From Bdellovibrionales bacterium (lineage in GTDB: Bacteria > Bdellovibrionota > Bdellovibrionia > Bdellovibrionales > CAYMLA01), in contig OZ244239.1 of NCBI GenBank assembly GCA_965217115.1, positions 416,001 through 480,000 on the forward strand: DNA of 64,000 nt, in the 5' to 3' direction. Below are positions 983 through 60,679 of this stretch, piece by piece (the first letter of the stretch is position 1; every line of letters begins with the position of its first letter). The notes below the pieces were generated by a model, which saw only the letters and a program-made list of their open reading frames with translations, did no database searches and was not told the DNA's origin. The position numbers and the translations under genes are program-made.

Positions 983-1128
983 GCCTTAAACCAGTGTGCC
1001 TTTTAAATAGAACCCTATCCCCAAGCGCAGTTCTTTTGGCGCGATGCTCGCAAAGCGAGCGCCGCAGCCGAAAGCATGTTTGAGCATTGGGGATAGGGTT
1101 CTATTTAAAAGGCACACTGGTTTAAGGC
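983..1128. repeat. Long-hairpin element copy A
   Basis: Perfect 42-bp inverted repeat (983-1024 / 1087-1128) around the core GCGCAGTTC...GCGATGCTCGC-AAA-GCGAGCGCCGC...ATGTTTGAGC. Confidence 0.9.
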
Positions 1129-1218
1129 ACACTGAGATTTAAGCCACCACAACTCAATTAATTAATTAATTAATTACTCAATCATCATCAATCAATTAAT
1201 TAATCACCCAATCCCACC

Positions 1219-2277
1219 CTAAGCCTTAACTCTCCAATACTGCTCTTCTATTCCCATAGAAAAAACAAGAGGATCACTCCCCTTCTGTCGATCTACAAAA
1301 TCAGATTTCCCCTTTATCCCCGCCCATTCCAAGTCCACCAGCACCTGCCCGATAACACCTCCGAGGGAGTTTCCTGGCCCTAAAATAATAACACAATCTG
1401 GATTGTACTCTTTAAGCCCCTTGGTGATGGCTTGGGTAAAATCATAGGGCTTATAAACTTGATGCCCCAGAGTGTAATCGTAAATAGCTTGGCCGCCAGA
1501 GCGATTCGATAGATAAAACTTCCACACATACCCTCGCCCATCTATAAGGTCACAGTCGCGATCAGGGGGGCCAAAAGACTCCACCCGAAGAGATGCAAAG
1601 GCCTTCTCTGAAACTTCCCGTAGCAAAGACGTGTGAAAAGCACCGTGATTAATTAATTGCAAAGGGTAGTTCTCGTTCTTAGGGAGATTTTTAAGAAGAA
1701 ACCCCATTCCCTCTTTGTCGGCACCGATAACAACGTATCCCCCTAGGAAAATCGAGATCTCAGCAAAACCAGATGTTCTATTGGCTTCTTCAATTAATTT
1801 AAGAACCTCTTCCCTCTTCTCTTCTTGGAGTTTCCAGTTTTCATCGACTAAGGGGTAAATAAGTTGACCACCAATAAGGCGCTCTTTCATCATCGACCCC
1901 ATCGTCTCAATCACTTCAAAACCCGCCATCGGATTAAGAACTTTTGCCAGGACACAGGCGCTGTACCAACCCATCGAGTTTCCAGTGATCGCCACTGGTT
2001 CGTACTTCTTAAAATTAATCTGTGAGTAATCAGCATAGGAGCAGGCGTAAATCAGAGAAGATGCATGTTCACCCTTGGTGTGTAGAGAGGGTTTGAATTT
2101 CTCCATTGAATCCAGTTCCGTGATCTTAGGTCTGCCGAGGTCCTGTCTCTTCCTATCAATCTCTTCTAAGAGAGATGTCACCTTCTGTCCCCGTCTCTGT
2201 AGATAACCTAAGGACTCCTTGGTGTAGGACCCCCGTCCTGGGCAAACAATCAGGGCTCGTTTTTTATTATCACTCAT
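1219..2277 (-). CDS. ACP S-malonyltransferase (FabD)-like acyltransferase
   Basis: CPGRG N-terminal motif, GNSMG nucleophile elbow, AFHT motif; 4-bp overlap with the E1 gene. Confidence 0.75.
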   Translation of the reverse strand: MSDNKKRALIVCPGRGSYTKESLGYLQRRGQKVTSLLEEIDRKRQDLGRPKITELDSMEKFKPSLHTKGEHASSLIYACSYADYSQINFKKYEPVAITGNSMGWYSACVLAKVLNPMAGFEVIETMGSMMKERLIGGQLIYPLVDENWKLQEEKREEVLKLIEEANRTSGFAEISIFLGGYVVIGADKEGMGFLLKNLPKNENYPLQLINHGAFHTSLLREVSEKAFASLRVESFGPPDRDCDLIDGRGYVWKFYLSNRSGGQAIYDYTLGHQVYKPYDFTQAITKGLKEYNPDCVIILGPGNSLGGVIGQVLVDLEWAGIKGKSDFVDRQKGSDPLVFSMGIEEQYWRVKA

Positions 2278-4538
2278 CTCTCTTCTCTCATTAGTTTTTT
2301 TGCTTTTAAGACAATAGACTCACAGCTTGGCAAACCCTTTGTGGCCGCAACCCCTAAAGGGATTAAACAATCATAACCCACATCCACCTCTATTTTTGGT
2401 TGTGTCGGTAATTTCCTCACAATAAAGGATGTTATCTCCTCGTGAATTCCCCCGCCCGTTTCACGACACTCATCCACAATCAAGATGTTCTTGGCTGACT
2501 GTATTTCTGATTTTAATTGCTCTTTATTATAATCTTTTAACCAGCGAAGGTTCAGTATTTTTATCGAGAAGCCCTCTTGATCTCTTAAAATTTTGGCTGC
2601 CTTATGGGAGAGATAATTCCCGTTGCCATAGGTGATGATTGTTAGGTCGTCTTCCTCTCTCTGACTCTCTCTCTGACTATAATCTTTACAAACTTCTATC
2701 TCTCCTAAAGGAATTTCATTTTCTAAATCTGGGTACTCGAAACTCCAAAGTTTATCATCCTCGTCGTGAAGATCGCGAATCATGTAGAGGGCAATGGGTT
2801 CTAAGAAAACACTGACTCTGCCCTTCTCATGGGCCACGCGCACACAGGTCCTCAACATCTCAGCCGCCTCTCTTCCATTGCTGGGACAAGCTAATATCAA
2901 CCCCGGAATATCACGGAGGACTGCAAAGGAGTTGTCATTGTGAAAGTGTCCCCCAAAACCTTTTTGATAGGCCAAACCTGCAACACGAATCACCATCGGA
3001 TTTGTGTACAAACCTTGGGAGAAAAAAGGCAGGGTCGCCGCCTCTCCACGAATCTGATCTTCGGCGTTGTGGATATAAGCTAAGAACTGAATTTCAGGGA
3101 TGGGAACAAAACCGTTATGGGCCATTCCCATGGATACACCTAGAATAGATTGTTCATCTAATAGAGAATTCAAAACTCTCTTACCACCAAAGCGCTCCTG
3201 CAAGCCTTCGGTCACATGGTACACGCCGCCTTTTTTACCAACGTCCTCACCCAAGATCAGCGTGTTCTCATAGCGAAGCATTATATCGGTTAAGGCGTAG
3301 TTTATAAGCTTGGCCATGTGCATTTTCTGACCGAGGCGTTTAAACTCTCTCTGTGTAAAAACATTTTCCCTCTTTTTTTCTATCGGCTGTGGCGGGCTTA
3401 AACGGCGATGGGTGCAAGAGGTCAAAGACTCACTCACCTCTCCAATCGTCTCCAGCTTAGGTCTTCGTGTCTCGCCTTGGGTCACTCCCCGTGCCACCGC
3501 CTGAACTTGATGGCGTATTTTTTCATAGACAAAAACCAAATCTTCTTTTGAAATTAAATTGCCTTCTAAGGCGATCCGAGCCGAATGCAATAGCGGGTCA
3601 TCAAACTCCGTCTTTTCAATTTTTTCCATGGGACGATAACTCCCCTCTATGTCTGATCCCGCATGTCCTAAGAGGCGAACCGTTTTCATGTGCAAGAAAA
3701 CAGGTTGCTTTCTTTGACGAGCGATTTGTAATGCTTTGATGCCCTTCTCTGTGCAATCATTGATGTTCAAACCATCACAGGCGATGTAATGTAAACTGGG
3801 TCTATTTTTAAAAGATTCTTGAATCCAATCTCTCGGAGTCGGAACAGAAATCCCCACTCCATTGTCCTCACAAATAAACACAATCGGCAGGGGAAGGCCT
3901 TGATAGGCTATCCAACTGGCTGTGTTGATCGCGCCTTGAGCCGTTGAGTGATTGGCCGAAGCATCGCCGAAGTTACACACAATAACACTGTCATTAGAAA
4001 GTGACCTATCCCCTATTGATAGATCATTGGCCCTAACAATGGAAAACGCGGCCCCCACGGACTTGGGCAAATGGGAGGCAATCGTGCTTGTCTGGGGAGG
4101 AGTGAAAAAACGCTCACTGCCAAAAACCTTATGCCGTCCTCCAGAGATGGGATCATCCGCCGAAGCCGTCAAGGACAGGCAGATATCATAAATCGGAGTG
4201 CTGTCAGCCAAATGCTTCTGACGCTGAATAAAAAAAGCTCCGCTGCGATAGTGGAGGAAAGCCATATCTGTGTGACGGAATATCCGACCAAAAGCTGCGT
4301 TGCCCTCATGGCCTGAGCTTCCTATGGTGTAAAAGCACTCACCCCCACTCTTGAGTTGACGGGCGACAATATCCAAGTGACGGCTTATCATTTGAGTCTC
4401 AAACAGGTCCATGAAATCATCGCCACTCAAAGCGCTCTCTTTTAGACCTGTATTGCTCTTCGCAGAGGGAAGCCTTCCCCCACGGACAAACTCCGTGAAA
4501 TTTTTATCGACAACCGCCGCTCGATTAAACACATCCAT
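2274..4538 (-). CDS. Fused alpha/beta E1 component of a 2-oxoacid dehydrogenase (TPP-dependent)
   Basis: GDAS...N TPP motif, RLLGHAGSD, GEDVGKKGGV, EIQFLAY, GGHFHN. Confidence 0.9.
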   Translation of the reverse strand: MDVFNRAAVVDKNFTEFVRGGRLPSAKSNTGLKESALSGDDFMDLFETQMISRHLDIVARQLKSGGECFYTIGSSGHEGNAAFGRIFRHTDMAFLHYRSGAFFIQRQKHLADSTPIYDICLSLTASADDPISGGRHKVFGSERFFTPPQTSTIASHLPKSVGAAFSIVRANDLSIGDRSLSNDSVIVCNFGDASANHSTAQGAINTASWIAYQGLPLPIVFICEDNGVGISVPTPRDWIQESFKNRPSLHYIACDGLNINDCTEKGIKALQIARQRKQPVFLHMKTVRLLGHAGSDIEGSYRPMEKIEKTEFDDPLLHSARIALEGNLISKEDLVFVYEKIRHQVQAVARGVTQGETRRPKLETIGEVSESLTSCTHRRLSPPQPIEKKRENVFTQREFKRLGQKMHMAKLINYALTDIMLRYENTLILGEDVGKKGGVYHVTEGLQERFGGKRVLNSLLDEQSILGVSMGMAHNGFVPIPEIQFLAYIHNAEDQIRGEAATLPFFSQGLYTNPMVIRVAGLAYQKGFGGHFHNDNSFAVLRDIPGLILACPSNGREAAEMLRTCVRVAHEKGRVSVFLEPIALYMIRDLHDEDDKLWSFEYPDLENEIPLGEIEVCKDYSQRESQREEDDLTIITYGNGNYLSHKAAKILRDQEGFSIKILNLRWLKDYNKEQLKSEIQSAKNILIVDECRETGGGIHEEITSFIVRKLPTQPKIEVDVGYDCLIPLGVAATKGLPSCESIVLKAKKLMREER

Positions 4539-4622
4539 GGCGAAAATTATCCTCCATCACTGTAGCCCAGACAACCAAAAATATAATGACCATTGAGTGT
4601 GTTTTTGTGGTACTGTCTCCCC

Positions 4623-5204
4623 ATGAAAATCAATCTCAATGAAATATCTGAAGAAGGCGTCCATTTCTGTCTCACTAGAGAGAGTGGTGAGCTTGGAACG
4701 TCCCTCACTGATTTAATTTCTACAAAGCCCTATCGATTTAAGGCCCATCTGAGAAGTATCGGCTGTGGGAGCTATCAACTCATCGGAACCATGGAGACCT
4801 CTCTAGAGACTGTTTGCTCCAGATGTGGGCAAGAGACCACCCACTCTCTAAATACAAAATTTAATGACCTCCTTCTCAATAAAAATCTTGATAGCCCCTC
4901 TGACCAGTCTTCTCCCACTGGAGAGACACAGGGAAAGTCCACTGGCCAGCCCCTAGAGATAGATAGCTCTGCTCTAGATGTCTCCTATTATGAAGAAAAT
5001 CACATCTTCTGTCTGGGAGCGTTTGCCCATGAAGTCATCGCGTTATCAGAACCCTATAAAATCTACTGCGACGACTGCTTGGAGCCTGGTGCAGATTTGA
5101 GTCAGCCTGTCTACACGGACCCCGCTGGAAAAGCCGATCCTGATTTTGACAAAAGAAATTCCCCTTTCTCCGCCCTAAAAGATCTCAATCTGGACGGGAA
5201 ATAG
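4623..5204 (+). CDS. yceD: YceD/DUF177 family protein
   Basis: CSRC and CDDC motifs, SPFSALKDL tail, immediately upstream of rpmF; start taken at ATG 4623. Confidence 0.85.
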   Translation: MKINLNEISEEGVHFCLTRESGELGTSLTDLISTKPYRFKAHLRSIGCGSYQLIGTMETSLETVCSRCGQETTHSLNTKFNDLLLNKNLDSPSDQSSPTGETQGKSTGQPLEIDSSALDVSYYEENHIFCLGAFAHEVIALSEPYKIYCDDCLEPGADLSQPVYTDPAGKADPDFDKRNSPFSALKDLNLDGK

Positions 5205-5270
5205 GAGATAAAGGTTGATTTATTCTTATTTTAAGATAACTTCTCTGAGTTAAATTAAAACGAGGTAACA

Positions 5271-5453
5271 ATGCCACAGCCAAAAAGTAGAATAACACGT
5301 TCAAGAAGGGGTATGAGACGCTCCCATGATGGAATCTCTGCTGGAGCTTCTGTTAATTGCCCCAACTGTGGCGCTGTCGCCAGACCCCACAGAGTTTGTG
5401 GCAGTTGTGGACACTACAAGGGTCGAGAAATCATCACCCAAAAAGATTCATAG
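5271..5453 (+). CDS. rpmF: 50S ribosomal protein L32
   Basis: MPQPKSRITRSRRGMRRSH, CPNCG...PHRVCGSCGHYKGR; GAGGT RBS. Confidence 0.97.
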   Translation: MPQPKSRITRSRRGMRRSHDGISAGASVNCPNCGAVARPHRVCGSCGHYKGREIITQKDS

Positions 5454-5466
5454 ACCACTTCTCTCC

Positions 5467-6387
5467 ATGGAAAAATTCCAAGATCCCGACTGGACAGCCA
5501 AAAATAGCCCACGCGCTTCAGTCCAACCCCGTTCTCTGCAAACCCTCTGGTTTAATACAGGCACGCTGTGTAATCTCCAATGCGAGAACTGCTACATAGA
5601 ATCCAGCCCCAAGAATGATCGCTTCACCTATATAACCACAAGTGAGGTCGAGACATATCTCCAAGAGGCCGAAACTGAAAACATGGCCCCCCAAGAAATC
5701 GCCTTCACGGGCGGAGAACCTTTTATGAACCCGGAGTTTATCCAGACTCTCCACATCTGCCTCGAACGTGGTTATCAAGTTCTCGTTTTAACAAATGCCA
5801 TGAAGCCCATGGAAAAAAAGAAGTTGGAGTTATTGGAAATCCTCTCCCGATTTCCCACACAGCTCACGATACGAGTCTCCATGGACCATTACACCCAAGA
5901 ACTCCACGCCAAAGAGAGGGGGCCTAAGGCATGGCTGCCAGCCCTAAAAGGTCTCAAGTGGCTCTCTACAAATAAATTTCCCATCAGTGTTGCAGGTCGA
6001 ACTCTTTGGAATGAATCAGAGACGCAAATGCGTCAAGGGTATCGCGATCTTTTCACCCGAGAGGGGATCAACATTGATTCCTCCAATCCTGAGGCTCTTA
6101 TCCTCTTTCCTGAAATGGACGAAAATGTCGATGTCCCTGAAATCACCACAGAGTGCTGGGAACTTTTGAAATTAAACCCTGATGATATGATGTGTGCCTC
6201 TTCTAGAATGATCGTAAAGAGAAGAGACGCTCCCTCGCCATCGGTTGTCGCCTGCACGCTTCTTCCCTACGACGAACAATTTGATTTTGGACACAGTCTT
6301 AAGAAATCATGGAAAACTGTAAAACTTAACCATCCCCATTGCGCAAAATTCTGCGTTCTCGGCGGAGGCTCTTGTAGCCAAAACTAA
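5467..6387 (+). CDS. Radical SAM protein, ArsS-related (arsenosugar-cluster type)
   Basis: CNLQCENC (CxxxCxxC), FTGGEP, Cys-rich C-terminus HPHCAKFCVLGGGSC; adjacent to arsM. Start moved to ATG 5467 to avoid overlapping rpmF. Confidence 0.8.
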   Translation: MEKFQDPDWTAKNSPRASVQPRSLQTLWFNTGTLCNLQCENCYIESSPKNDRFTYITTSEVETYLQEAETENMAPQEIAFTGGEPFMNPEFIQTLHICLERGYQVLVLTNAMKPMEKKKLELLEILSRFPTQLTIRVSMDHYTQELHAKERGPKAWLPALKGLKWLSTNKFPISVAGRTLWNESETQMRQGYRDLFTREGINIDSSNPEALILFPEMDENVDVPEITTECWELLKLNPDDMMCASSRMIVKRRDAPSPSVVACTLLPYDEQFDFGHSLKKSWKTVKLNHPHCAKFCVLGGGSCSQN

Positions 6388-6401
6388 ACGAGGTCATACC
6401 T

Positions 6402-7442
6402 ATGCAAAACGAAATCATTGAAAATGTAAAAAACTACTACGGACAAACTCTCGACTCATCAGACGATCTCAAGACGAGTGCCTGTTGCGTGGAAGAAGAA
6501 ATCCCCTCCTACTTAAAGCCTATTCTAAAAGATATTCATGGCGAAGTGATGACCAAATTTTACGGATGTGGCTCTCCTATCCCCCTCGAACTTGAAGGCA
6601 GAACAGTCTTAGATCTTGGATCTGGATCAGGGCGTGACAGTTTTGTGATGTCAAAACTTGTCGGACCCAACGGGCGTGTTATCGGTGTTGATATGACCGA
6701 TGAACAACTGCAAGTGGCGGAAAAACATGTGACCTATCACACTGAAAAATTTGGCTACACGAAACCAAATGTCGAATTTCGTAAAGCCTATATCGAAGAT
6801 CTAAGAACCGCCAATATCGCCGATAACTCCATAGATGTCATAACATCTAATTGCGTGTTAAACCTCTCGACCAACAAAGAAAAAGTTTTTTCTGAAATTT
6901 TCCGTGTTCTTAAACCTGGTGGAGAACTTTATTTCTCAGATGTTTTCTCTGACAGACGTATTCCAGAAGAGTTAACCAAAGACCCTGTGCTTCACGGTGA
7001 ATGTCTCAGTGGCGCACTCTACAAGGAAGATTTCCGACGTCTCCTCGGCAAAATCGGATGTGCCGATGTGCGTGTAGATAAAGAACGTATTCTAGAAGTC
7101 ACAGATCCTGATATTCACCGTAAGATAGGCATGATTACTTTCTATTCAATGACGGTTCGTGCCTTTAAATTGGAACTCGAAGATCAGTGTGAAGATTACG
7201 GTCAAGTCGCCTACTATCAAGGAAGCATTGCAGGGAATTCCCACGAGTTTGCTCTCGACGATCACCATGTTTTCAAAACCAATCAACCCACACTTGTGTG
7301 TTCCAACACGGCTCGCATGCTCACTCAAACCCGCTACCAAAAACATTTCAAAGTTGTCGGAGATGAGTCCACACACTTTGGTCTCTTTGCCTGTAATACA
7401 GATTCACAGAGCCCCGATGAAACCACGACGGGTTGCTGCTGA
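6402..7442 (+). CDS. arsM: Arsenite S-adenosylmethionine methyltransferase (AS3MT-like)
   Basis: LKTSACC, FYGCG, VLDLGSGSGRD, IGVDMT, SNCVLNL, GECLSGAL, C-terminal CC. Confidence 0.9.
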   Translation: MQNEIIENVKNYYGQTLDSSDDLKTSACCVEEEIPSYLKPILKDIHGEVMTKFYGCGSPIPLELEGRTVLDLGSGSGRDSFVMSKLVGPNGRVIGVDMTDEQLQVAEKHVTYHTEKFGYTKPNVEFRKAYIEDLRTANIADNSIDVITSNCVLNLSTNKEKVFSEIFRVLKPGGELYFSDVFSDRRIPEELTKDPVLHGECLSGALYKEDFRRLLGKIGCADVRVDKERILEVTDPDIHRKIGMITFYSMTVRAFKLELEDQCEDYGQVAYYQGSIAGNSHEFALDDHHVFKTNQPTLVCSNTARMLTQTRYQKHFKVVGDESTHFGLFACNTDSQSPDETTTGCC

Positions 7443-8299
7443 TGAAGCCCATGTTTTTTTTCAGAGGGAGCTTCAGTTTTGCGCTCACCCTCTTTACAGC
7501 TATCGGTGTCTCTGCAACAAAGAAACTTGTTATTACAGGTTCTAGCACTGTGGCTCCCCTTGTGTCTGAGATTGCTAAATCCTTTGAGAAAAAACATCCT
7601 CAAACTCGCGTTGAAGTGCAGACAGGTGGTTCCACCCGTGGCCTTATAGAAGCCCGCCAAGGTGTTAACGACATTGGTATGATCTCTAGAAATTTAAAAA
7701 ACAATGAAAAGAATCTGGAGCAATACACTCTGGCAAAAGATGGCATTGCCATTATTGTCAACGCTCAGAATCCCATTGAGAGTCTCTCTAAGGCGCAAAT
7801 TAAAGGGATCTTCCAAAAGAGCACCAACTCTTGGAAAGATGTCGGTGGCCTTCCGTCGCCAATAACTGTTATCCATAAAGCCGAGGGGAGATCGACACTG
7901 GAACTCTTCTTAAATTTTTATCAACTCAAAAACAATCAGATAAAACCTGATATTATTATTGGCGATAACGAACAGGGAATTAAATCCATCGCTAACAATC
8001 CCAACGCCATTGGCTATGTCTCCATTGGAACCGCTGAATATCACATCAAACAGAAAGTCCCCATAAAAATGCTTCCCATGAACGGCGTTAGAGCGTCCAC
8101 GGAATCTCTGCGCCAAGGAATATATCCACTTTCACGAAATCTCAATTTAATCATTCAACGAAGCCCATCGAAAAGATCAGAGAAAAGATCAGAGAACATT
8201 TCAGAGAACTTAAAAGATCACTTTATCCAATTTGCCACCTCAAAGGATGTCCATGCTCTCATCCAGCAACAAGGCTTCATCCCCTACAAAAAAAATTGA
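7442..8299 (+). CDS. pstS: PstS-like ABC substrate-binding protein
   Basis: Signal peptide, ITGSSTV, TGGSTRG, DIGMISR, AKDGIAIIVN, YPLSRNL; TGATG overlap with arsM. Confidence 0.8.
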   Translation: MKPMFFFRGSFSFALTLFTAIGVSATKKLVITGSSTVAPLVSEIAKSFEKKHPQTRVEVQTGGSTRGLIEARQGVNDIGMISRNLKNNEKNLEQYTLAKDGIAIIVNAQNPIESLSKAQIKGIFQKSTNSWKDVGGLPSPITVIHKAEGRSTLELFLNFYQLKNNQIKPDIIIGDNEQGIKSIANNPNAIGYVSIGTAEYHIKQKVPIKMLPMNGVRASTESLRQGIYPLSRNLNLIIQRSPSKRSEKRSENISENLKDHFIQFATSKDVHALIQQQGFIPYKKN

Positions 8300-9131
8300 A
8301 ACATCCTTGTGGGGTTTTCTTACTCTAGGCACCATTGTCTCTGGTCTCTTGTCTCTTATGATTTTCACTTTTCTCTTCAAAGAGTCTATTCCTTTTATAA
8401 AATTCTTAAGCTCTTATGAGGGGATTTTATCACGCTCATGGTTTCCTCTGGAAGGAGAATTCAATTTTCTGCCCATCATCGTCGGCTCACTCCTGGCGAC
8501 AGTGGGGAGTTTTTTACTCACAGTTCCCCTGGGAGTTCTTCTTGCGCTCTTTCTTTGTTATTACTCTCCAAAAACTCTCACTAAAGTCCTCGAACCGTTC
8601 ATTGAAGTTTTTTCTGGACTGCCTTCAGTGGTCATTGGACTCTGGGGACTTGTTGTTCTGGTCCCCTACATTCTTCAGTGGACACCGCCTGGCGCCAGCC
8701 TTCTTGCCGCCATTGTTATTCTCAGTATCATGACCCTACCCACTGTAACACTCATCATTAAGAATCGCCTAGAGGCCATTCCTAGGGAACGCCTCATCAC
8801 AGCCCAAGCACTTGGGCTTCCTAAGACGACCACTCTTCTAAAAATATTTCTGCCAGAAGTTCGTTCAGGCATTATCAAGGCCTCCGTTCTTCAAGTGGGC
8901 CGGGCCATGGGAGAAACCATGGCCGTGCTTATGGTCTGTGGTAATATTCCGCAAATACCAAAGAGTCTGTTTGCCCCCATAAGAACTCTCACAACGAACA
9001 TCGCCCTAGAGATGTCCTATGCAACCGACATTCATCGTTCCAGTCTTTTCTTTAGTGGATTTATCTTGGCGATCATCGCAACTCTCTTAGCCCTTCTCGC
9101 CCATCGCTACCAAAAAGACGGGGTCCTATGA
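8232..9131 (+). CDS. pstC: Phosphate-type ABC permease PstC (start uncertain, possibly 8307)
   Basis: LPSVVIGLWG, GRAMGETMAVLMV. Confidence 0.88.
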   Translation: MPPQRMSMLSSSNKASSPTKKIETSLWGFLTLGTIVSGLLSLMIFTFLFKESIPFIKFLSSYEGILSRSWFPLEGEFNFLPIIVGSLLATVGSFLLTVPLGVLLALFLCYYSPKTLTKVLEPFIEVFSGLPSVVIGLWGLVVLVPYILQWTPPGASLLAAIVILSIMTLPTVTLIIKNRLEAIPRERLITAQALGLPKTTTLLKIFLPEVRSGIIKASVLQVGRAMGETMAVLMVCGNIPQIPKSLFAPIRTLTTNIALEMSYATDIHRSSLFFSGFILAIIATLLALLAHRYQKDGVL

Positions 9132-9988
9132 GTTTGATGTTATGGAAAAAAAATCTTCGCCGAACATTCAGCGATGGGCTGCTGCCAGCACTCACTGTCC
9201 TTGTTTTTCTTGCCGTTTTTTCAATCTATGGTCATATCCTCTGGGATATTTTCGCAATTGGCCTTAAGGGAATCTCGTGGGATTTTTTAAGTCAAGAAAC
9301 TCTCAATTCAGGAAAAGCGGGGGGAATCTTTCCCATCATTATCTCTACTCTATGGATTTTGTTAATCTGTATGCTTGCTTCCGTCCCCATTGGCTTAGGG
9401 ACTTCGATCATTCTTGCAAATATTTTCTCTTCTAAAAAACATCATTTTCTCACATCAACAGTCAGAGTCAGTCTTGATATCTTATCTGGATTGCCTTCCA
9501 TTGTTTTTGGACTTTTTGGCAACATCTTCTTTTGTAAAATTCTAGGCATGGGGTTCTCTATCATGTCTGGTGGGTTGACCCTTGCCTGTATGGTTCTGCC
9601 GATTTTTATTAAAATCTCAGAAGAGAGCCTGCGAAAGGTCCCCTCAGAATATCGCCTTGCAGGTTTAGCCTGTGGGCTTAGTCGTGTCTCCCTCTTGCGT
9701 CACATTGTTCTTCCAAACGCTTTATCTGGCATCACTGTCGGCTTCATCCTAAGTGTGGGAAGAGCGCTTGCCGAAACTGCCGCGCTGATCTTCACCAGTG
9801 GTTATGTCGATCGCATACCTGAGAGCGTTTGGGATTCTGGGCGAAGCGCTTCAGTTCACATTTACGATCTGTCCATGAATATTCCTGGAGGTAACCAAAA
9901 TGCCTATTCCACGGCACTTGTTCTTGTCTTTATTCTTATTTTCTTAAATAGTCTCGTTAAACTCATCACTAGAAGGTTCGCTCTATGA
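9128..9988 (+). CDS. pstA: Phosphate-type ABC permease PstA
   Basis: GGIFPIIIST, LPSIVFGLFG, GRALAETAALIFT. Confidence 0.88.
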   Translation: MSLMLWKKNLRRTFSDGLLPALTVLVFLAVFSIYGHILWDIFAIGLKGISWDFLSQETLNSGKAGGIFPIIISTLWILLICMLASVPIGLGTSIILANIFSSKKHHFLTSTVRVSLDILSGLPSIVFGLFGNIFFCKILGMGFSIMSGGLTLACMVLPIFIKISEESLRKVPSEYRLAGLACGLSRVSLLRHIVLPNALSGITVGFILSVGRALAETAALIFTSGYVDRIPESVWDSGRSASVHIYDLSMNIPGGNQNAYSTALVLVFILIFLNSLVKLITRRFAL

Positions 9989-10779
9989 CAGTCGTTGAAA
10001 AAAAACCTCTCATGAAAATCCAGAACCTCTCCCTAAATTATAAAAACAGCTCTGCTTTTTCTAATATTAATCTAAATATTCTTCCCCAAGAAGTTCTTGC
10101 CCTCATCGGACCTTCTGGCTCTGGTAAATCTAGTTTTCTAAATTGTTTAAATCAACTCTTCCTCTCTGTCCCCTGTTGCACAGTTGAGGGAAGTATCGAG
10201 TTTGAAGGGCGAGTTATATTAGGGGGAGAGACCACTTCGGCTAAACTGAATCTACAGCATCTCAGGAGAAACATTGGTATGGTCTTTCAAAGACCCCATC
10301 CCTTTCCCAATTCTATTTACAAGAACATGTCCATCCCACTCAAGGAAGTTGGTATTAAGAGTAAAGATTCTATCGATGAAACAATCCATAGAACTTTCTC
10401 AGATGTTGGCCTGTGGGATGAACTAAAAGATCGTCTCCAATCTTCGGCCCTCGAACTCTCAGGAGGTCAGCAACAGAGACTCTGTATTGCCCGAGCCATT
10501 GCTCTTAAACCTAAGCTATTGCTGATGGATGAACCAACAAGTTCACTCGACCCCATCGCCGCGCAAACGATCGAGTCACTCATCACGGAACTCAAGAAAA
10601 AATATGCAGTCGTCATGGTCACACACAATCTTGCCCAAGCTAGACGTATCTCAGATAAATTGGCCCTCATCTACCCTATCAACGGAATAGGTCATTTGAT
10701 TGAATACGGTGAAACAGCCCATCTCTTTAAATCTCCACAGGAAGATCTCACTAAAGAGTATTTTTCAAGGGAACTTTAA
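9985..10779 (+). CDS. pstB: Phosphate-type ABC ATPase PstB
   Basis: GPSGSGKS, GMVFQRPHPFP, LSGGQQQRLCIARA, DEPTSSLDP. Confidence 0.9.
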   Translation: MTVVEKKPLMKIQNLSLNYKNSSAFSNINLNILPQEVLALIGPSGSGKSSFLNCLNQLFLSVPCCTVEGSIEFEGRVILGGETTSAKLNLQHLRRNIGMVFQRPHPFPNSIYKNMSIPLKEVGIKSKDSIDETIHRTFSDVGLWDELKDRLQSSALELSGGQQQRLCIARAIALKPKLLLMDEPTSSLDPIAAQTIESLITELKKKYAVVMVTHNLAQARRISDKLALIYPINGIGHLIEYGETAHLFKSPQEDLTKEYFSREL

Positions 10780-10783
10780 ACAT

Positions 10784-11491
10784 ATGAAAACTGTCAGTGT
10801 TATTTTCAGCACCCACAACGATGCTAAGAATGGGTTTCTCAAGAAAAGTCTCACCTCCCTATGTGATGAGTCCTCTTGTGAAATCATTGTCGTCAATAAA
10901 AGTGACGAGATCCCCGAACTCTTAAACACACTTCCTGTGAAACTGATCTCCTCCAAAGACCCATCACGGGCAGTGAGACAAAATCTTGGTATTAAAGCCG
11001 CTCAAGGTGATATTATTCTGCTCCACCATCCACGCAGTGTTCTAGAGAGAGGAGCGATTCAGGAACTGACCGAAGCCATGGAAAATCAGATGATCACATG
11101 GGGCTGCTTCACCCATGGGTTTAACATAAAACATCCCCTTCTGCAGTTCACCTCATGGTATTCTAATAAAGTTCGCTGCGATCAAAAGAGCATTGCTTAT
11201 TTAGACCATTGTGTCTTCTTCCGACGCAGCCTACTTGAGAATGACCCCACCCCTGTCCCCGAGGTGGATATCTTTGAAGACACAGAGCTGAGTTTAAAAC
11301 TTAAGAAACTCGGCAAACCGGTACGACTCTCTAAACAGTCTACAACCTCTGCCATTCGTTTTCAAAAGAACGGTGTTTATAGGCAATCTCTTCTCAATCA
11401 AGTGCTTAAGGTGGGTTATGGGTTGGGGGTTTCTGATGGGTGGATGAATCGTCTCTACGAGAAAGGCCTCTCTCTTAATTCTAAATATTAG
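10784..11491 (+). CDS. Family 2 glycosyltransferase resembling the arsenosugar-associated (TIGR04283-like) type
   Basis: SVIFSTHN, SRAVRQNLG, YLDHCVF, IFEDTELS, TSAIRFQKNGV; the usual HAD (DxD-equivalent) motif reads HHPRS. Confidence 0.7.
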   Translation: MKTVSVIFSTHNDAKNGFLKKSLTSLCDESSCEIIVVNKSDEIPELLNTLPVKLISSKDPSRAVRQNLGIKAAQGDIILLHHPRSVLERGAIQELTEAMENQMITWGCFTHGFNIKHPLLQFTSWYSNKVRCDQKSIAYLDHCVFFRRSLLENDPTPVPEVDIFEDTELSLKLKKLGKPVRLSKQSTTSAIRFQKNGVYRQSLLNQVLKVGYGLGVSDGWMNRLYEKGLSLNSKY

Positions 11492-11496
11492 GAGCC

Positions 11497-11990
11497 GTTT
11501 TTAAAATGCCTCTTTATTCTTTAGCTCAGACATTCGGTTGGCAGCGGCGCTCGCTTAGAATATCGGTCGGCTGAAGCGACCGGTATTCTAGGCGAGCATC
11601 GCACCAATCCGAACTCGCTAAAGAACAAAGAGGCATTTTAAAAACTCTCTTTGAACATCTGCGACTGACTGGGCACAACGGGGAAGGGGGATAACGGAGA
11701 GCTTAGAATATCGGTCGGCTGAAGCGCCTGGTATTCTAGGCGAGCATCGCACCAACCGAACTCGCTAAAGAACAAAGAGGCATTTTAAAAACTCTCTTTG
11801 AACATCTGCGACTGACTGGGCACAACGGGGAAGGGGGATAACGGAGAGCTTAGAATATCGGTCGGCTGAAGCGGCTGGTATTCTAGGCGAGCATCGCACC
11901 AACCGAACTCGCTAAAGAACAAAGAGGCATTTTAAAAACTCTCTTTGAACATCTGCGATGGGCTGGGAACAACGGAGGGGGTAGGATGTC
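11497..11990. repeat. Long-hairpin element copy B (11497-11645) followed by two tandem ~137-bp partial copies
   Basis: 29-bp inverted arms with one mismatch; core GCTCAGACATTCGGTTGGCAGCGGCGCTCGC...GCGAGCATCGCACCAATCCGAACTCGC; units restart at 11563, 11701 and 11838. Confidence 0.92.
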
Positions 11991-12012
11991 GGTGCGATCC
12001 ATCGTTAGGACT

Positions 12013-12047
12013 AAAAAAAAATGCCCTCGAGTGAATATCGAAGGCAT
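12013..12047 (-). terminator. Probable intrinsic terminator of the 12145-12678 gene
   Basis: ATGCC(C)TCGA/TCGA(A)GGCAT hairpin followed by a U run on the minus strand. Confidence 0.55.
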
Positions 12048-12144
12048 CTTAATTTTTAACTTGGGCCTTTTATTAACCTGTCCCATTTTTGGGGTACAGA
12101 TCATTAAATTATAGCCTTTTTTTTAAATAAGAAAGTTAATATGC

Positions 12145-12678
12145 TTAATAAACTTTTTTAAAGTAATAGCAATGTCCATAAATATTAGAATTTATCTCTG
12201 GATAACGAGAAACCCGACCCACAAAAAAATCGCTATATTTTTTTAATGAGAAGATTGGAATTCCATCTGTAGATGCTAAAGAGCCCTCCCGTTCCTCGGT
12301 GGTAAAGGTCTGATTATCAGGGCTCCTCATAATTTGTACTATAGCATCCTTAAAATTTGACAAATCATTATCATAATAGTTCGCTGGTACTTTTTTCGCG
12401 TGAAAAAACATCATTTGATGTGCTGTCTTTGGGGGGAAATCGCCACCATTAGCTGGGTCTATATTTATGCGAGATGCTAATAGGCCAGCTATTGGCTTGC
12501 TTGGCGCTTTTGCTGCGTAACATCTTCCAGACCACCAACCAAAAGTTTCTTCTTCTGTAGGTAGGGTTCCTTGGTCATACATCTCTCCGAGTTCTTCAAA
12601 ATTAGTGGGAAACTCTGATGCTCCATGGACATTGCTAAATGCTAGGCATGCTAAGATAACAATAGATAGAAACTTCAT
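12145..12678 (-). CDS. Secreted hypothetical protein, paralog 1
   Basis: Signal peptide, AAGGAG RBS, GWWSGRCY...CYYFKKVY; paralog at 13454-14002. Confidence 0.8.
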   Translation of the reverse strand: MKFLSIVILACLAFSNVHGASEFPTNFEELGEMYDQGTLPTEEETFGWWSGRCYAAKAPSKPIAGLLASRINIDPANGGDFPPKTAHQMMFFHAKKVPANYYDNDLSNFKDAIVQIMRSPDNQTFTTEEREGSLASTDGIPIFSLKKYSDFFVGRVSRYPEINSNIYGHCYYFKKVY

Positions 12679-12905
12679 TGCAACTCCTTATTTATATTGC
12701 CTATTTGGGCAATGGTTTTATTACGAGCTTTACCGCCCATAAAGTTATTGCGCTTTATTTAAAACACACAGTCTATTTAACAGTTTTTCTATGAATGTCT
12801 ATAATTATAACAATAAATTGACTCGTTCCTAAAAAACCTGCGGTGCGGGAAACTAGGTAAAAACAAGTGTTTAAACAAGGCATTTGATTCTAAATGTTCG
12901 AAGCC

Positions 12906-13250
12906 GTTTTTAAAATGCCTCTTTGTTCTTTAGCTCAGACATTCGGTTGGCAGCGGCGCTCGCCTAGAATATCGGTCGCTGGAGCGACCGGTATTCTGAG
13001 CGAGCATCGCACCAATCCGAACTCGCTAAAGAACAAAGAGGCATTTTAAAAACTCTCTTTGAACATCTGCGATGGGCTGGGAACAACGGAGAGCTTAGAA
13101 TATCGGTCGCTGGGGCGATCGGTATTCTAGGCGAGCATTGCACCAACCGAACTCGCTAAAGAACAGAGAGGTATTTTAAAAACTCTCTTTGAACATCTGC
13201 GATGGGCTGGGAACAACGGAGAGCTTAGAATATCGGTCGCTGGAGGGGAT
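12906..13250. repeat. Long-hairpin element copy C (12906-13053) plus tandem partial copies
   Basis: Same arms and core as copy B. Confidence 0.92.
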
Positions 13251-13324
13251 AAGACAATTGAAGATGTAAAAAAAATACCGGAGAAAATAAAGTATTATAA
13301 CCATAGCGATTCATCGTTAGGACT

Positions 13325-13358
13325 AAAAAAAATGCCCTCGAGTGAATATCGAAGGCAT
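13325..13358 (-). terminator. Probable intrinsic terminator of the 13454-14002 gene
   Basis: Same hairpin and U run as at 12013-12047. Confidence 0.55.
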
Positions 13359-13453
13359 CTTAATTTTTAACTTGGGCCTTTTATTAACCTGTCCCATTTT
13401 TGGGGTACAGATCATTAAATTATAGCTTTTTTTAGATAGGAAAGTTAATACAC

Positions 13454-14002
13454 TTAATAAACTTTTTTAAAGAAATAGCAATTTGAATAAACATCACCAG
13501 CGCGCCATCTGTGCTTACCATTGGATGTAGAACCATCTTGATTAACAATAGCTTGGCCTATAAAATAATTTTCATATTTTCTTAGTGCAAAATCTAAATT
13601 AAGTGGTGTATATGCATATAAAGAATTGTCTCTTTTTTTAACAATAATTCTTCTGTTTTCTTCAGTGTTTATAAGTTCTTCTACCTCAACCTTAAATTCT
13701 AATAAATTATTGTCAAAGTAGTCAGCTGCTTGTTTTGATCCATGACGAAGAAAGACCATTTGATGCGTCTTTGAAGGTTCATCTGTAATCATCCTAGATA
13801 CTAATAGGTTAGGTAATGGATTACTTGGCATTAATACATCGTAACATCTTCCAGACCACCAACCAAAAGTTTCTTCTTTTGTAGGCAGGGTTCCTTGGTC
13901 AAACATCTCTCCCAGTTCTTCAAAATCAGTGGAAAGCTCTGATGCTCCATGGACACTGCTAAATGCTAGGCATGATAAGATAACAATAGATAGAAACTTC
14001 AT
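13454..14002 (-). CDS. Secreted hypothetical protein, paralog 2
   Basis: Signal peptide; N-terminal ~54 aa nearly identical to paralog 1; ends CYFFKKVY. Confidence 0.8.
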   Translation of the reverse strand: MKFLSIVILSCLAFSSVHGASELSTDFEELGEMFDQGTLPTKEETFGWWSGRCYDVLMPSNPLPNLLVSRMITDEPSKTHQMVFLRHGSKQAADYFDNNLLEFKVEVEELINTEENRRIIVKKRDNSLYAYTPLNLDFALRKYENYFIGQAIVNQDGSTSNGKHRWRAGDVYSNCYFFKKVY

Positions 14003-14229
14003 TGCAACTCCTTATTTATATTGCCTATTTGGGCAATGGTTTTATTACGAGCTTTACCGCCCATAAAGTTATTGCGCTTTATTTAAAACACACAGTCTAT
14101 TTAACAGTTTTTCTATGAATGTCTATAATTATAACAATAAATTGACTCGTTCCTAAAAAACCTGCGGTGCGGAAAACTAGGTAAAAACAAATATTTAACC
14201 AAGGCCTTTGATTCTAAATGTTAGACGCC

Positions 14230-14532
14230 GTTTTTAAAATGACTCTTTATTCTTTAGCTCAGACATTCGGTTGGCAGCGGCGCTCGCTTAGAATATCGGT
14301 CGCTAAAGCGACCGGTATTCTAAGTGAGCATCGCACCAATCCGAACTCGCTAAAGAACAAAGAGGCATTTTAAAAACTCTCTTTGAACATCTGCGACTGA
14401 CTGGGCACAACGGAGAAGGGGGACAACGGAGGGGGTAGAATATCGGTCGCTGGGGGGACTGGTATTCTAAGGGGGGGGGGGGGAGAGGGAGGGAAAGAAA
14501 GAGAAAGAAAGAAAGAAAGAAAGAAAAAGAGA
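14230..14532. repeat. Long-hairpin element copy D (14230-14377) with partial copy, G13 run and (GAAA)n tail
   Basis: Same core as B and C; purine tract at 14471-14532. Confidence 0.9.
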
Positions 14533-14542
14533 TATATAAAAT

Positions 14543-15541
14543 TTAGGGGGTGAGGAAGCCGGTTTTTTTGTAGACGTTTTTTAGGGTTTTGTGGGCGATT
14601 TCTTTTGCTCGTAGGGCGTTTGTTTTTAGCATTGACTCTAGATAAGTTTGATCCTGTATAAGTTTGTCGTACTCTTCACGCACGGGGCGTAACACATCAC
14701 AAACTAGGTCCGCCGTGGCCACCTTGAAATGTCCATAGAGTTTTCCTGAAAACTCTTTTTCTATCTCAGGTAAACTCATTCCCGATAGACAGGAGTAAAT
14801 CGTCATTAAATTAGCAATGCCCGCCTTGCCCTCAAGGTCATAGGTGACCTCCTCTCCGGAGTCTGTAACGGCGGATTTAATTTTCTTTTGAATTTTGTTT
14901 TCTGGATCAATCACTGATACGTAGGCCCCAGGCAAACAGTCTGATTTAGACATCTTAGACATCGGGTCCTTCAGAGACATCACCCTTGCCCCCAATTTAT
15001 TAATCAAAGGTTCTGGGATAACAAAGGCCTGGCCATGGCGTTTATTAAACTGCTCCGCCAAATCGCGGGTCAACTCCAAGTGTTGCTTTTGATCTTCTCC
15101 CACGGGAACCAAATTTGTCTGATAAAGTAATATATCTGCAGCCATCAATACAGGATAAGTAAAGAGCCCTGTATTGATGTTTTTAGGGTCACTCTCTGAT
15201 TTATCCTTAAACTGTGTCATTCTCCTTAGAGAACCCATCGGAGTTAAGCAACTCAAAACCCAAGCAAGCTCCGTGTGTTCACTCACATGGGACTGCATGA
15301 AAATAATATTTTTCTCTGGGTCTAAACCGCAGGCCAAATACTGAGCAATAAAGGACAAACTCCTCTGGCGCAACTCCTTAGGGTCCTGCCTCACAGTGAT
15401 TGAATGGAGATCCGCCGCCATATAGAGACAGCTATACTCATCCTGCATCTTCGCCCAATTAGAAACAGCGCCGATGTAATTGCCTATGGTCAGAACACCT
15501 GTGGTCGTACTCGCACTTAGAACTGTTTTTTTATCTGCCAT
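14543..15541 (-). CDS. trpS: Tryptophan--tRNA ligase
   Basis: TIGN, YPVLMAADIL, VPVGEDQKQHLE, KMSKS. Confidence 0.97.
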   Translation of the reverse strand: MADKKTVLSASTTTGVLTIGNYIGAVSNWAKMQDEYSCLYMAADLHSITVRQDPKELRQRSLSFIAQYLACGLDPEKNIIFMQSHVSEHTELAWVLSCLTPMGSLRRMTQFKDKSESDPKNINTGLFTYPVLMAADILLYQTNLVPVGEDQKQHLELTRDLAEQFNKRHGQAFVIPEPLINKLGARVMSLKDPMSKMSKSDCLPGAYVSVIDPENKIQKKIKSAVTDSGEEVTYDLEGKAGIANLMTIYSCLSGMSLPEIEKEFSGKLYGHFKVATADLVCDVLRPVREEYDKLIQDQTYLESMLKTNALRAKEIAHKTLKNVYKKTGFLTP

Positions 15542-15650
15542 AAATACACCTTAAACTGTTTTTTATCTGTCGTAAATACACCTTACTCATTCCAGGGAAA
15601 TCTTTCAAGAAAAGGATGTTAGAAGTTTTCCATCTCCATTCTTTAAGCCA

Positions 15651-31218: not shown

Positions 31219-31408
31219 TTCATCAAGCTATTCGAAATGAAGAGGCACAAATAGTTACCTTCAGGAGACCAACCAAAACCGATCTCCTTTATTCTTCTGC
31301 CTGTGGCAGTCGTTAAGCCGTACAACTAAACTACTGCCCCAGGAAAAGCCTCTTTTAAAGGTTCTTTATGACAAACAATAGTGGAGCCAGTTTTTTCTGA
31401 TGAGCTGT

Positions 31409-31560
31409 TTTTTTTCTAGAGTCTCTCCCAAAAGAATCCAGCCCTTTTCTTGCTCAAACATCCGTTTGTCACCTTCCATTGCAGAAAAATGCAATGGAAG
31501 TCGCCAAGCCAAACTCGCCGAAAAGAACTGGATTCTTTTGGGAGAGACTCTAGAAAAAAA
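31409..31560. repeat. Long-hairpin element copy E (divergent)
   Basis: Perfect 33-bp inverted repeat (31409-31441 / 31528-31560); core GCTCAAACAT...AAACTCGC with a different apical stem CTTCCATTGCA/TGCAATGGAAG. Confidence 0.75.
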
Positions 31561-31952
31561 GGCCGTATTCAATCAATGAATCAATAGTGTTGGTTTAGAA
31601 ATAGGTCATTTATTCTGGACAAATTCCCTCGAAAGTTTAAAACGAAGAATAATAAACCTGGGTTGGTTTAGAAAACTATGCTCCGTTAACTAGACAGATT
31701 TCCTCTATTTCTATGGCTGACCTCCATGTATAACAACGCTGTTATCCATGGATAGTTTTAGAAAGAGAGCCCTCAAGATGAGTCTCTTGGGAACAGTTCC
31801 ACTATTTATCACAAAGAACCAATCAGAACGGCTACGAATCGCACCCCAGACATTTTCTCAGCAGAGAAATAGCTTGCTTAATAATAAATAGAATACTGGT
31901 GTGAATCACACTATGAATGTATCTAACTCGCTACAACAGGAGTATGGAGAAA

Positions 31953-58782: not shown

Positions 58783-58784
58783 CC

Positions 58785-59031
58785 CTCTCCCCACGATCCT
58801 CAAAGAGCAAGCCCTTCCAGCGATGCTCGAAGAGCAAGCCTTCCTTCCCTGCCTTCCTGCCTTCCTTACCTCCCCACCTCGCTGTTCCCAGTCAAGCGCA
58901 GATTTCAAAGCCTGTTTTTTAAATGGATCTTTGTTATTTAAGCGAGTTCGGATTGGTGCGATGCTCGCTTCAGCGAGCGCCGCTGCCAAACGAATGTCTG
59001 AGCTTAAATAATAAAGATCCATTTAAAAAAC
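58785..59031. repeat. Long-hairpin element copy F (58914-59031) with C-rich tail on its left
   Basis: Reverse-complement orientation of the B-D core; different outer stem and short apical loop. Confidence 0.92.
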
Positions 59032-59165
59032 CTCCCTTTGAAAATTTTTCCCATCTTTTTTACCTTATTTCACACTGTCCTATTTTTGTTTAGACCCAGC
59101 AAACACCCTATGTTACAGTGCGTCATTATAGGTGCTTTAACTTTAACCATTGCAAGGAGAATAAA

Positions 59166-59759
59166 ATGAAAAAACTTATACTATTAGTAGCTCTGATGTT
59201 TACATCAGCGACATTTGCAGGAGGAGCTGCAGGCTTTTCTGTTGAGATTCTGAGTGTTTTAAAAAAAATCATGGTGGGGAAAAAGTCAGGGAACCTCACG
59301 ACACGACAGTCTTCAAGTGCAAATAAGGCTATAGAAGCTTCTTCAAGACTTGAAGGAGATGAAGTTATTGTAAACTTGTCTAAGGGACTTAATATTGACG
59401 AGCTACTTAAAGTAGAGGTTAACGCTCGTGGATGGAGCCAGATATCTGTGGAACTTTCTCACATGGGGCCTTCGGTAATAACTCAATTTTCATTAAAATC
59501 CATTGACAGCCTAGTCAAAAAAATTGTGAAATCTCACAAACTTCGTCCTGTCAGTATCATAAATAATAAGCGCCTTGACCCAAAGACTCTTTACAGCACT
59601 ACTAATAAGGACTTTACATATAATTTAGATATATCTAATGGTGGGTCTACTGTAAAACTCTCAACCTCATACCAAAATGAGATGATAGTAGGAAAAATTA
59701 TAGAAAACATCGGGTTCAACTTGGAAAAGTTTGCAGCCTCAGCAGCAGCTTTACTCTAA
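59166..59759 (+). CDS. Secreted hypothetical protein
   Basis: AAGGAG RBS, signal peptide MKKLILLVALMFTSATFA. Confidence 0.75.
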   Translation: MKKLILLVALMFTSATFAGGAAGFSVEILSVLKKIMVGKKSGNLTTRQSSSANKAIEASSRLEGDEVIVNLSKGLNIDELLKVEVNARGWSQISVELSHMGPSVITQFSLKSIDSLVKKIVKSHKLRPVSIINNKRLDPKTLYSTTNKDFTYNLDISNGGSTVKLSTSYQNEMIVGKIIENIGFNLEKFAASAAALL

Positions 59760-60184
59760 TTGTTGAGCCTTAAAGACTAGAAGGAGTTAGGTCAGTATGT
59801 GCTATTATCACTTACTCCTCTCTAGTCTTATATTGTAAAAACTAGCGCCACTGAGTATCAATACCAAAAAGATAAAAGATGTAACATTGGTGCTTTTTGG
59901 TATACATGTAAAAAAAAACAGTGCCTATCAAGAAAAGAAACGGGAAAGTTCCTTTTCTTTCAATAGATACTACTCCGGGAGATGATGGGGCTCTAACTTG
60001 TAAAAATTAAATGCCTCTCTAAAATAGCTCCCATAGAATAAGTTGAACTGATTTTTTTGGTGGCGATGGCTTTAGCAAGGAGTGCTCCGTAACTATTATG
60101 AAGATGACCAGAACCGCCCTTAATACTCATCTTAAAAACAAGTTCACTTCCTTGAACTAAAAAAATAAAAAGGCCACCAAAGTG

Positions 60185-60679
60185 GCCTTTGTTATTTGAG
60201 CCAGTTCGAATTGGTCCGACGCTCAAAGAGCAGCCCTCCCCTCCCCTCCCCTGCGATGCTCAAAGAGCAGCCCTTCCCTGCTGCCCTATCTCCCTGCGAT
60301 GCTCAAAGAGCAAGCCCTTCCCTGCTGCCCTGTCTCCCTGCAATGCTCAAAGAGCAGCCCTTCCCTGCTGCCCTATCTCCCTGCGATGCTCAAAGAGCAA
60401 GCCCTTCCCTGCTTCCCTGTCTCCCTGCGATGCTCAAAGAGCAAGCCCTTCCCTGCTGCCCCTGTCTCCCTGCGATGCTCAAAGAGCAAGCCCTTCCCTG
60501 CGTCCCTTCCTTCCCTCCCTCCCCGCCCCGCTGTTCCCAGTCAAGCGCAGATTTCAAAGCCTGTTTTTTAAATGGGTCTTTGTTATTTAAGCGAGTTCGG
60601 ATTGGTGCGATGCTCGCTTCAGCGAGCGCCGCTGCCAAACGAATGTCTGAGCTAAATAATAAAGACCCATTTAAAAAAC
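60185..60679. repeat. Long-hairpin element copy G (60563-60679) preceded by about six ~43-nt tandem units and a degenerate half element
   Basis: Unit CCTGCGATGCTCAAAGAGCAAGCCCTTCCCTGCTGCCCTGTCTC; hairpin nearly identical to copy F. Confidence 0.92.

Follow-up and report, generated by a model that had tools for sequence, protein, structure and literature searches.

What kind of element keeps an asymmetric internal loop nearly unchanged in a long stem whose sequence is free to differ? The question is raised by a 64,000-nucleotide stretch of a Bdellovibrionales genome (GenBank assembly GCA_965217115.1, contig OZ244239.1, positions 416,001 to 480,000; hereafter, the window), in which a first-pass annotation had described a dispersed family of seven long hairpins, A to G. 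All seven lie where they had been placed, with GCTCARACAT on one arm opposite RAACT(G)CGC on the other, and the family that they define is real and, apparently, a new variant of palindromic mobile DNA. Below, G000 denotes the genome holding the window (2.17 Mb, 99.4% complete; the window is G000:C1:416001-480000), and handles of the type Gnnn, Lnnn and gnn (e.g., G020, L093, genus g31) denote genomes, loci and genera, respectively.

An invariant loop in stems of free sequence

Read from foot to tip on the better-folding strand (the folding strand), an element consists of a 25-45-bp stem, an A/T tract, GAGTT opposite TGTYYGA, above this loop a short helix, semi-conserved and bearing an extrahelical G, and an apical stem of free length, with A and T tracts flanking the core. 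Only the asymmetric internal loop, GAGTT facing TGTYYGA, is nearly invariant; among the 116 matches of a model-fitted alignment, conservation at the 12 positions of the loop is 96-99%, with the Y and C/T degeneracy counted. Outer base pairs changed on both sides in 24 of 24 cases, 93% of the cells pair and none of 500 shuffles reached the score, in a set of 27 copies that were picked for in-register stems, a choice of rows that favors this result. In the window, folding z-scores range from -11 to -16 for copies A, C, E and F on both strands, and none of 200 shuffles folded as well. The compensatory change between F and G reported at first pass (GGATCT/AGATCC to GGGTCT/AGACCC) was confirmed in the sequence. 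Two other details had to be amended: GCGAGCATCGC, thought to be common to six copies, is exact in five and carries one mismatch in copy D, and the outer stems of B-D and F-G, taken to be unrelated, turn out to be related to each other. The strand quoted in that description is the reverse complement of the folding strand. The window also contains four further partial copies (see the table) as well as tails made of repeated apical fragments.

Counted once per stem group and position, stem mismatches are G·T on the folding strand 90 times versus 36 times on the other strand (p = 1.6e-6), and the DNA folding energy is lower on the folding strand in 167 of 189 elements. AAA triloops are stable in DNA, as are GNA triloops, and apical triloops of the [GA]NA type are present on the folding strand in 73 of 99 cases versus 6 on the opposite strand, while RNA-type loops are not enriched (GNRA, 3 versus 5; UNCG, 0). 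In the portion of the source available, d(GNA) loops are described as very stable in DNA (PMC3201870). Of 30 loci in genus g31, 13 have the folding strand in mRNA-sense and 14 in antisense orientation (three were miscalled); in G000, it is antisense to the gene that it follows. As one strand folds better, bears DNA-type triloops and lies sense or antisense to mRNA, single-stranded DNA (ssDNA) is the probable substrate. We therefore suggest that the family acts at the DNA level, probably as ssDNA, and a single-stranded substrate, one of the ideas put forward at first pass, is still the best reading. A K-turn was ruled out by inspection, the 3-nt bulge being absent at the required place. Rfam gave no match at the gathering threshold in the window and, by E-value, merely generic matches far below threshold. 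Contigs from four sequencing runs of one sample were collapsed at repeats over window positions 1-20000 and yielded nothing usable.

Local arrays, filled and empty sites and the origin of the stems

A covariance model gave 105 matches in G000, and copies are present in other Bdellovibrionales as well. The matches in G000 fall into two groups. One consists of 71 copies, complete or partial, that form 19 clusters, and every cluster has an outer stem of its own; the other consists of 42 near-identical E-type cores within a miniature inverted-repeat transposable element (MITE). Copy E is the mere core of such a larger MITE; the seven hairpins do form one family, but the spread of E is owed to a separate element. 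Outside the MITE, 21 of the 26 cluster founders (by our reading of their positions) lie within 30 bp and 24 within 100 bp of a same-strand housekeeping stop codon, and two precede a divergent gene; the founder of the F array, beyond the window, starts 19 bp past a housekeeping stop codon. Genes between copies are mostly unannotated, have signal-peptide-like starts and are often paralogues. Direct repeats start at or inside the 3' end of the host gene and reach into the flanks of the cargo genes, as in the window, where the last ~16 nt of the glycosyltransferase gene ahead of copy B recur in front of C and D. At least one cluster closes with its founder sequence in inverted, nearly identical form (92% over 200 bp). 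Given where the repeats begin, that they take in cargo flanks and that an inverted founder copy exists, the arrays look like local duplications starting from the hairpin foot. On the hairpin's opposite side come a shared tail and purine-rich or apical-derived repeats. A search for outer arms as copies templated elsewhere in G000 returned, among the first 40 of 304 matches, just 13-15-nt stretches at chance level or other MITE copies.

Hairpin elements are gained or lost between genes of related species. At the epmA-ihf site, one of 22 congeners examined is filled (G193, a nested doublet) and 21 are without any hairpin, the closest empty one having a 9-bp gap. The G193 stem runs 23 nt into epmA; one arm consists of the 3' end of epmA, whose ortholog is found at the empty site, and the other arm is an inverted copy of this end that is not present at the closest empty site. 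Stems likewise reach 37 nt into the conserved coding end of a pyruvate-kinase-like gene at L093 and into a conserved coding end at L163. Such overlap with host coding DNA is not universal, since in most of 39 cases examined the stem ends on or close to the stop codon, and L175 has a coding tail that seems to be element-derived itself. A second site is filled in three related species and empty in 27 (3/30), and at a third the insertions are placed differently in three species (3/16). Nested doublets of opposite polarity occur at L093 and L240. Conserved ends or a consistent target duplication for the hairpin itself were not seen at the empty sites, the ends varying by locus. In genus g11, the epmA-ihf junction (L270-L289) is an accessory-gene hot spot without hairpin, occupied by lipoprotein proteases, toxin-antitoxin-like pairs and flagellin.

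At the second site, the three stems are as unlike as unrelated stems (identity 0.23-0.42; background, 0.35), with four-fold sites 0.55-0.79 identical. The identities of the left and right arms shift together, and the value of 0.42 was obtained in species whose neighboring gene is 0.79 identical at four-fold sites. Four further orthologous pairs allowed a valid gene comparison, and there the conservation of the arms equals or exceeds that of four-fold sites. Template switching perfects inverted repeats, according to the accessible part of a published account (PMC5941160). Because the arms include inverted host DNA and both arms change together, the covariation of the stems is at least partly a mechanical effect of copying and is not in itself proof of selection; the loop, for its part, keeps its sequence across families. 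Selection on structure and internal loop, as proposed at first pass, thus retains the conserved loop and the covarying stems as observations, but covariation alone does not establish it.

Features of the hairpin family in the window; the strand listed for each hairpin is the better-folding one
Feature	Position	Strand	Remarks
Hairpin A	983..1128	+	outer stem 42-44 bp, variant core; 91 bp past the stop of open reading frame (ORF) 1219-2277(-)
Host glycosyltransferase gene	10700..11491	+	stop 5 bp ahead of copy B
Hairpin B	11497..11645	-	founder of B-D array; extra apical stem
Two tandem partial copies (11701-11792, 11848-11939)	11701..11939	-	147-bp period; apical part, 3' half and tail of B
Cargo gene between B and C	12145..12678	-	signal-peptide-like start; paralogues elsewhere in G000; no match in Pfam or NCBIfam
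Hairpin C	12906..13053	-	followed by partial copy 13093-13183
Second cargo gene	13454..14002	-	duplicated along with hairpin flanks
Hairpin D	14230..14377	-	followed by fragment 14436-14471 and purine-rich tail
MITE bearing copy E	31360..31820	.	~22-bp imperfect terminal inverted repeats; no target duplication at this copy
Hairpin E	31409..31560	-	diverged family member; 42 near-identical cores in G000
Tail of F	58783..58913	.	conserved tail motif, purine-rich repeats, apical fragments
Hairpin F	58914..59031	+	last unit of array; founder outside window at G000:C1:482847
Cargo gene between F and G	59118..59759	+	signal-peptide-like stretch; no family match
Tail of G	60184..60562	.	tandem repeats derived from the hairpin's apical sequence
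Hairpin G	60563..60679	+	full copy

Purine-rich low-complexity tandem repeats adjoining A (349-980) and D (14460-14540) give rise to spurious ORFs.

Carriers, distribution and candidate enzymes

The E-type MITE is present in about 40 copies of 212-522 bp in G000 and has GG-ended inverted repeats and 8-bp duplications; exact target duplications of 7-9 bp accompany 14 of 31 end pairs, 12 of them with 8 bp. By its GG ends and 8-bp AT-rich target duplication, we take it to be ISL3-like; an ISL3 transposase was not found in G000. The end pattern matched in 2 of 383 other genomes of the order, one of which, when checked, fell inside a coding gene, and there was no plasmid match. Internal deletions of the MITE in G000 mostly begin right past the hairpin and almost always spare it. 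In 33 of 42 MITE-borne copies, the folding strand lies on the lagging-strand template (p = 0.0003). Several MITE copies are located just downstream of tRNA genes (G000:C1 179815, 447409, 789111, 812887, 1628904, 2004617). In the window, a tRNA-Leu gene (31132-31218) is followed by the MITE and then by TIR_2-domain, HamA and DEAD-box helicase genes (32416-37496), corresponding to a Hachiman-like defence island plus a TIR gene; at 43040-44767 lies the gene of an AAA_15 ATPase. In G507 and G509, the hairpin resides inside a TA-ended MITE, presumably IS630-like by its general features, and an IS200 fragment is inserted into one hairpin arm. Carriage in MITEs was thus found in two lineages with differing MITE ends; most family copies are without MITE ends.

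The hairpin is also a target for other elements. In three copies of one genome, an element with an IS110 transposase and subterminal inverted repeats sits precisely at the loop TCA, and a related right-end junction is present in another genome; the transposase has Pfam matches and reaches 129 bits in NCBIfam, under the cut-off of 140. This IS1111-type IS110 element (L038, L084, L088, L037) has a long non-coding region. Elements of the IS1111 group likewise insert at attC and repetitive extragenic palindromic (REP) sites, as stated in the available part of PMC11187229. A second short palindromic repeat, of the GTCATTCCCGC type, is inserted in or around hairpins of G508 (L030, L096, L038, L028).

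An exact core pattern was found in at least 118 stretches of the genome collection, and the 80 listed are all titled Bdellovibrionales, Bdellovibrionia, their families, or Oligoflexia. The covariance model detected the hairpin in 13 of 61 relatives, G000 included, and a second model in 9 of 28 same-order genomes and in none of 122 genomes from the rest of the phylum. With a variant core pattern, matches were obtained for 19 of 41 g31 genomes (control, 0), the majority of them overlooked by the models; since, in addition, few candidates were scored per genome, negatives of the models in relatives are weak. Viral contigs gave no match with two core patterns. Judged by these sequence matches, the family appears to be restricted, as far as found, to the order Bdellovibrionales. 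The first-pass annotation did not recognise it, and it does seem undescribed: besides lacking an Rfam match, it has no description that we found in a literature whose coverage was incomplete, without supplements or ISfinder. In the parts of the sources available, one paper gives eight attack-phase small RNAs with no mention of repeats (PMC3627812), and two surveys of Y1 and REP systems do not mention Bdellovibrio (PMC3733652, PMC6006769).

No cognate enzyme had been seen in the window at first pass; this was borne out, and none was found in the rest of G000 either. The only positive lead is G020, in which five of six hairpin matches, occurring in both orientations, are separated from divergent Y1 HUH genes by 45-280 bp; one such gene is flanked on both sides. 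A metagenome scan yielded two Y1 loci, both without hairpin, and in G046 and G058 a different, single-copy hairpin adjoins a Y1 gene. IS110 was not found in G000, and queries with Rpn, IS481-like, HNH and PD-(D/E)XK proteins were without match. Of the three tyrosine recombinases of G000, by score one is XerC-like, one XerD-like and one an integrative-element integrase, with IntI scores of 46-121 bits versus a cut-off of 265 (TIGR02249), and a search of G000 found no IntI. The single reverse transcriptase (RT) of G000 forms a retron-like unit with a helix-turn-helix (HTH) protein, with no core motif seen upstream. An RT is encoded by 8 of the 13 relatives with the hairpin and by 14 of the 48 others but by none of four further g31 carriers, and was rejected as a partner for this lack of tracking. 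The hairpin upstream of the HTH-RT unit (L432:1228-2461) shares a 9-10-bp stem word with B-D, probably by chance. A divergent, multi-copy Y1 HUH family, with a YxxxN-type motif, occurs in 33 of the 61 genomes searched (L155, L200, L201, L204, L210, L218, L224, L225), and several of its genes adjoin long, unrelated hairpins or a perfect inverted repeat of 62 bp. Genes of the Rpn/YhgA-like or PD-(D/E)XK-like type were also seen in tandem arrays, with hairpins in between (L080-L083, L063-L064).

A model of the hairpin, its rivals and known systems

The explanation that we tentatively prefer, with confidence just short of even, is a non-autonomous, REPIN-like element (REPINs being REP doublets that form hairpins) of inside-out design, which would fold as ssDNA and be nicked, close to its foot, by a trans-acting enzyme of the HUH type, and whose stem would be kept and extended by arm-to-arm copying. 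We infer folding in vivo, the nick and the enzyme, whereas the sequences themselves show the family with its strand asymmetry, its duplication, its gain and loss at given sites and its parasitism by other elements. One strand would fold once exposed, e.g., during replication, and a protein would read the GAGTT/TGTYYGA loop atop the long stem. A nick near the stem foot might then prime copying, by which the element would move and arrays and tails would arise. Fold-back or template-switch synthesis would copy one arm onto the other, such that stems could stay paired, turn over in sequence and take in neighboring host DNA. The enzyme might be a Y1/RAYT-like HUH protein (RAYT, REP-associated tyrosine transposase) lost from G000, recent spread in this genome having proceeded via the MITE and local duplication. 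Nick-primed copying and the lost HUH enzyme are the weakest parts of the proposal. A bolder version, which we deem unlikely, posits a new class of bacterial mobile DNA, in which a ~60-base ssDNA recognition loop would be put at gene boundaries by a putative enzyme, would build or rebuild its own long stem by copying the target backwards, and would then seed, in predatory bacteria, local gene duplication and arrays of accessory and secreted-protein genes.

A number of observations weigh against the preferred explanation. Y1/HUH proteins were not found in G000 with Pfam Y1, a single-protein query or a six-frame search with a profile made from 50 Y1 proteins specific to the order (best E, 2.2). 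They do not co-occur with the hairpin (7 of 13 hairpin-positive versus 26 of 48 hairpin-negative relatives), and in genus g31 the trend runs in the wrong direction (7 of 19 carriers versus 15 of 22 others; Fisher p = 0.06). Outside G020, no Y1 locus has a family hairpin within 1.5 kb, save for an IS200 fragment inserted into one. On co-occurrence and adjacency, Y1 was rejected as a general partner, and since the multi-copy neighbors of hairpins in other genomes are Rpn, PD-(D/E)XK-like or HNH genes, the Y1 genes of G020 may be cargo. The REP tag, GTAG or CGTC at the foot of a 20-50-nt palindrome, is found near either foot in only 8 and 13, respectively, of 224 distinct elements. There is no replication bias among the 26 non-MITE founders (16:10, p = 0.33), and the lagging-strand bias of the MITE-borne copies may belong to the MITE rather than to the hairpin. 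The G·T bias could stem from cytosine deamination in ssDNA instead of selection, and the copies are related, so that counts are not independent. Core identity at orthologous sites is inflated, as the loci were found by the core pattern, and no empty site is near enough to fix the ends or the cut site.

Alternatively, the hairpin might be a DNA site that the host maintains for one of its ordinary chromosomal proteins, of replication restart, priming, repair or the nucleoid, which would read it, the site spreading only passively, via MITEs, local duplication and template switching, without transposing itself. We regard this as rather unlikely, although the hairpin persists at orthologous sites in species without a Y1 match (G039, G229, G234), its core remaining intact as the stems change, its presence is not tracked by any one enzyme family, traceable high copy numbers sit in MITEs or local arrays, and MITE deletions in G000 almost always leave it in place. 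The patchy presence of the hairpin, its repeated gain at new sites in genomes without MITE ends around it and the many complete relatives without a match speak against such a site, and the opposite-polarity nested doublets suggest active insertion.

Action as RNA, i.e., as a structured element or two-way terminator at transcript ends that is bound by an RNA-binding protein, would account for the founders next to same-strand stop codons in G000, for the preference in other genomes, where, with the closest gene end up to 80 bp away counted, 20 stops stand against a single start, and for the flanking A and T tracts; the loop can also be drawn with tandem G·A pairs. However, the strand transcribed past stop codons is the worse-folding one, g31 shows both orientations, also between co-directional genes, and the loops are of the DNA type, without GNRA or UNCG excess or Rfam match, which renders this explanation quite improbable. 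Still less probable, in our estimate, is an attC-like recombination site, with the arrays of hairpins and accessory genes representing cassette arrays made by an unrecognised tyrosine recombinase. Unrelated accessory genes flanked by direct repeats, a bottom strand that folds after stop codons, the extrahelical G, toxin-antitoxin-like pairs adjoining some copies and IS1111-type targeting as reported for attC (PMC11187229, in part) would fit such a site. Yet paired RYYYAAC/GTTRRRY boxes are present in 0 of 224 distinct elements, the tyrosine recombinases of G000 are far under the IntI cut-off, and most copies in other genomes are solitary, between core genes. Moreover, host gene ends and cargo flanks form part of the repeats, and every array possesses a stem of its own, as local duplication predicts. 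The attC and structured-RNA readings offered at first pass are thus both disfavored, and the REP/REPIN one fails, as a matter of membership, on the tag motif and, in G000, on the enzyme.

The spread of REPIN-like hairpins and the origin of attC-type arrays are open questions on which the family bears. It offers sites that are filled or empty in nature as well as orthologous copies whose stems have been rewritten, so that arm copying and loop recognition are open to direct tests. The hairpins mark where predatory bacteria duplicate or gain genes for secreted proteins, and their loop is a new conserved target for RNA-guided IS1111-type elements; an enzyme, if found, would represent a new ssDNA-processing activity.

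Among known systems, the palindromic MITEs ERIC, RUP, Correia and RPE are folding intergenic repeats of 100-250 bp. TIRtrons, as far as the available text of two surveys goes (PMC3733652, PMC6006769), are similar in size, folding and location, and our hairpin is carried in a MITE in two lineages, with ends marked by GG and an 8-bp duplication in G000 and by TA in G507 and G509. Unlike palindromic MITEs, the hairpin itself lacks conserved termini and target duplication. Quasi-palindrome correction by template switching, as outlined in the accessible part of PMC5941160, accounts for perfect arms extending into flanks; however, it is a mutational process and leaves the invariant loop and the arrival at new sites unexplained. 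With integron attC sites and clusters of attC sites lacking integron integrases (CALIN), the family shares a long imperfect hairpin, a better-folding bottom strand past stop codons, an extrahelical base, accessory genes between repeats and IS1111 targeting (PMC3053210, available part). It differs from them in having no R-box sequences, no IntI in G000, many solitary copies and arrays made by local duplication. REPINs, REPs and bacterial interspersed mosaic elements with their RAYT (TnpA-REP) are likewise extragenic hairpins in tandem clusters that include flanks, with compensatory changes (PMC3116915, PMC8266576), and REP systems involve strand-specific recognition of a bulged single-stranded stem and IS110-family targeting (also PMC11187229), in each case according to the parts of these sources available. 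By analogy, the strand asymmetry of our hairpin is consistent with a REP-like strand-specific cleavage. No RAYT is present in G000 and none tracks the family, which also lacks REPIN-type conserved inverted ends, although the G020 copies do share a ~25-bp inverted outer motif. The family belongs to neither REP/REPIN nor attC: spanning the whole order, it reverses the REPIN design, in that the palindromic ends of REPINs are conserved and their middle varies, whereas our hairpins combine variable ends with a conserved, asymmetric middle.

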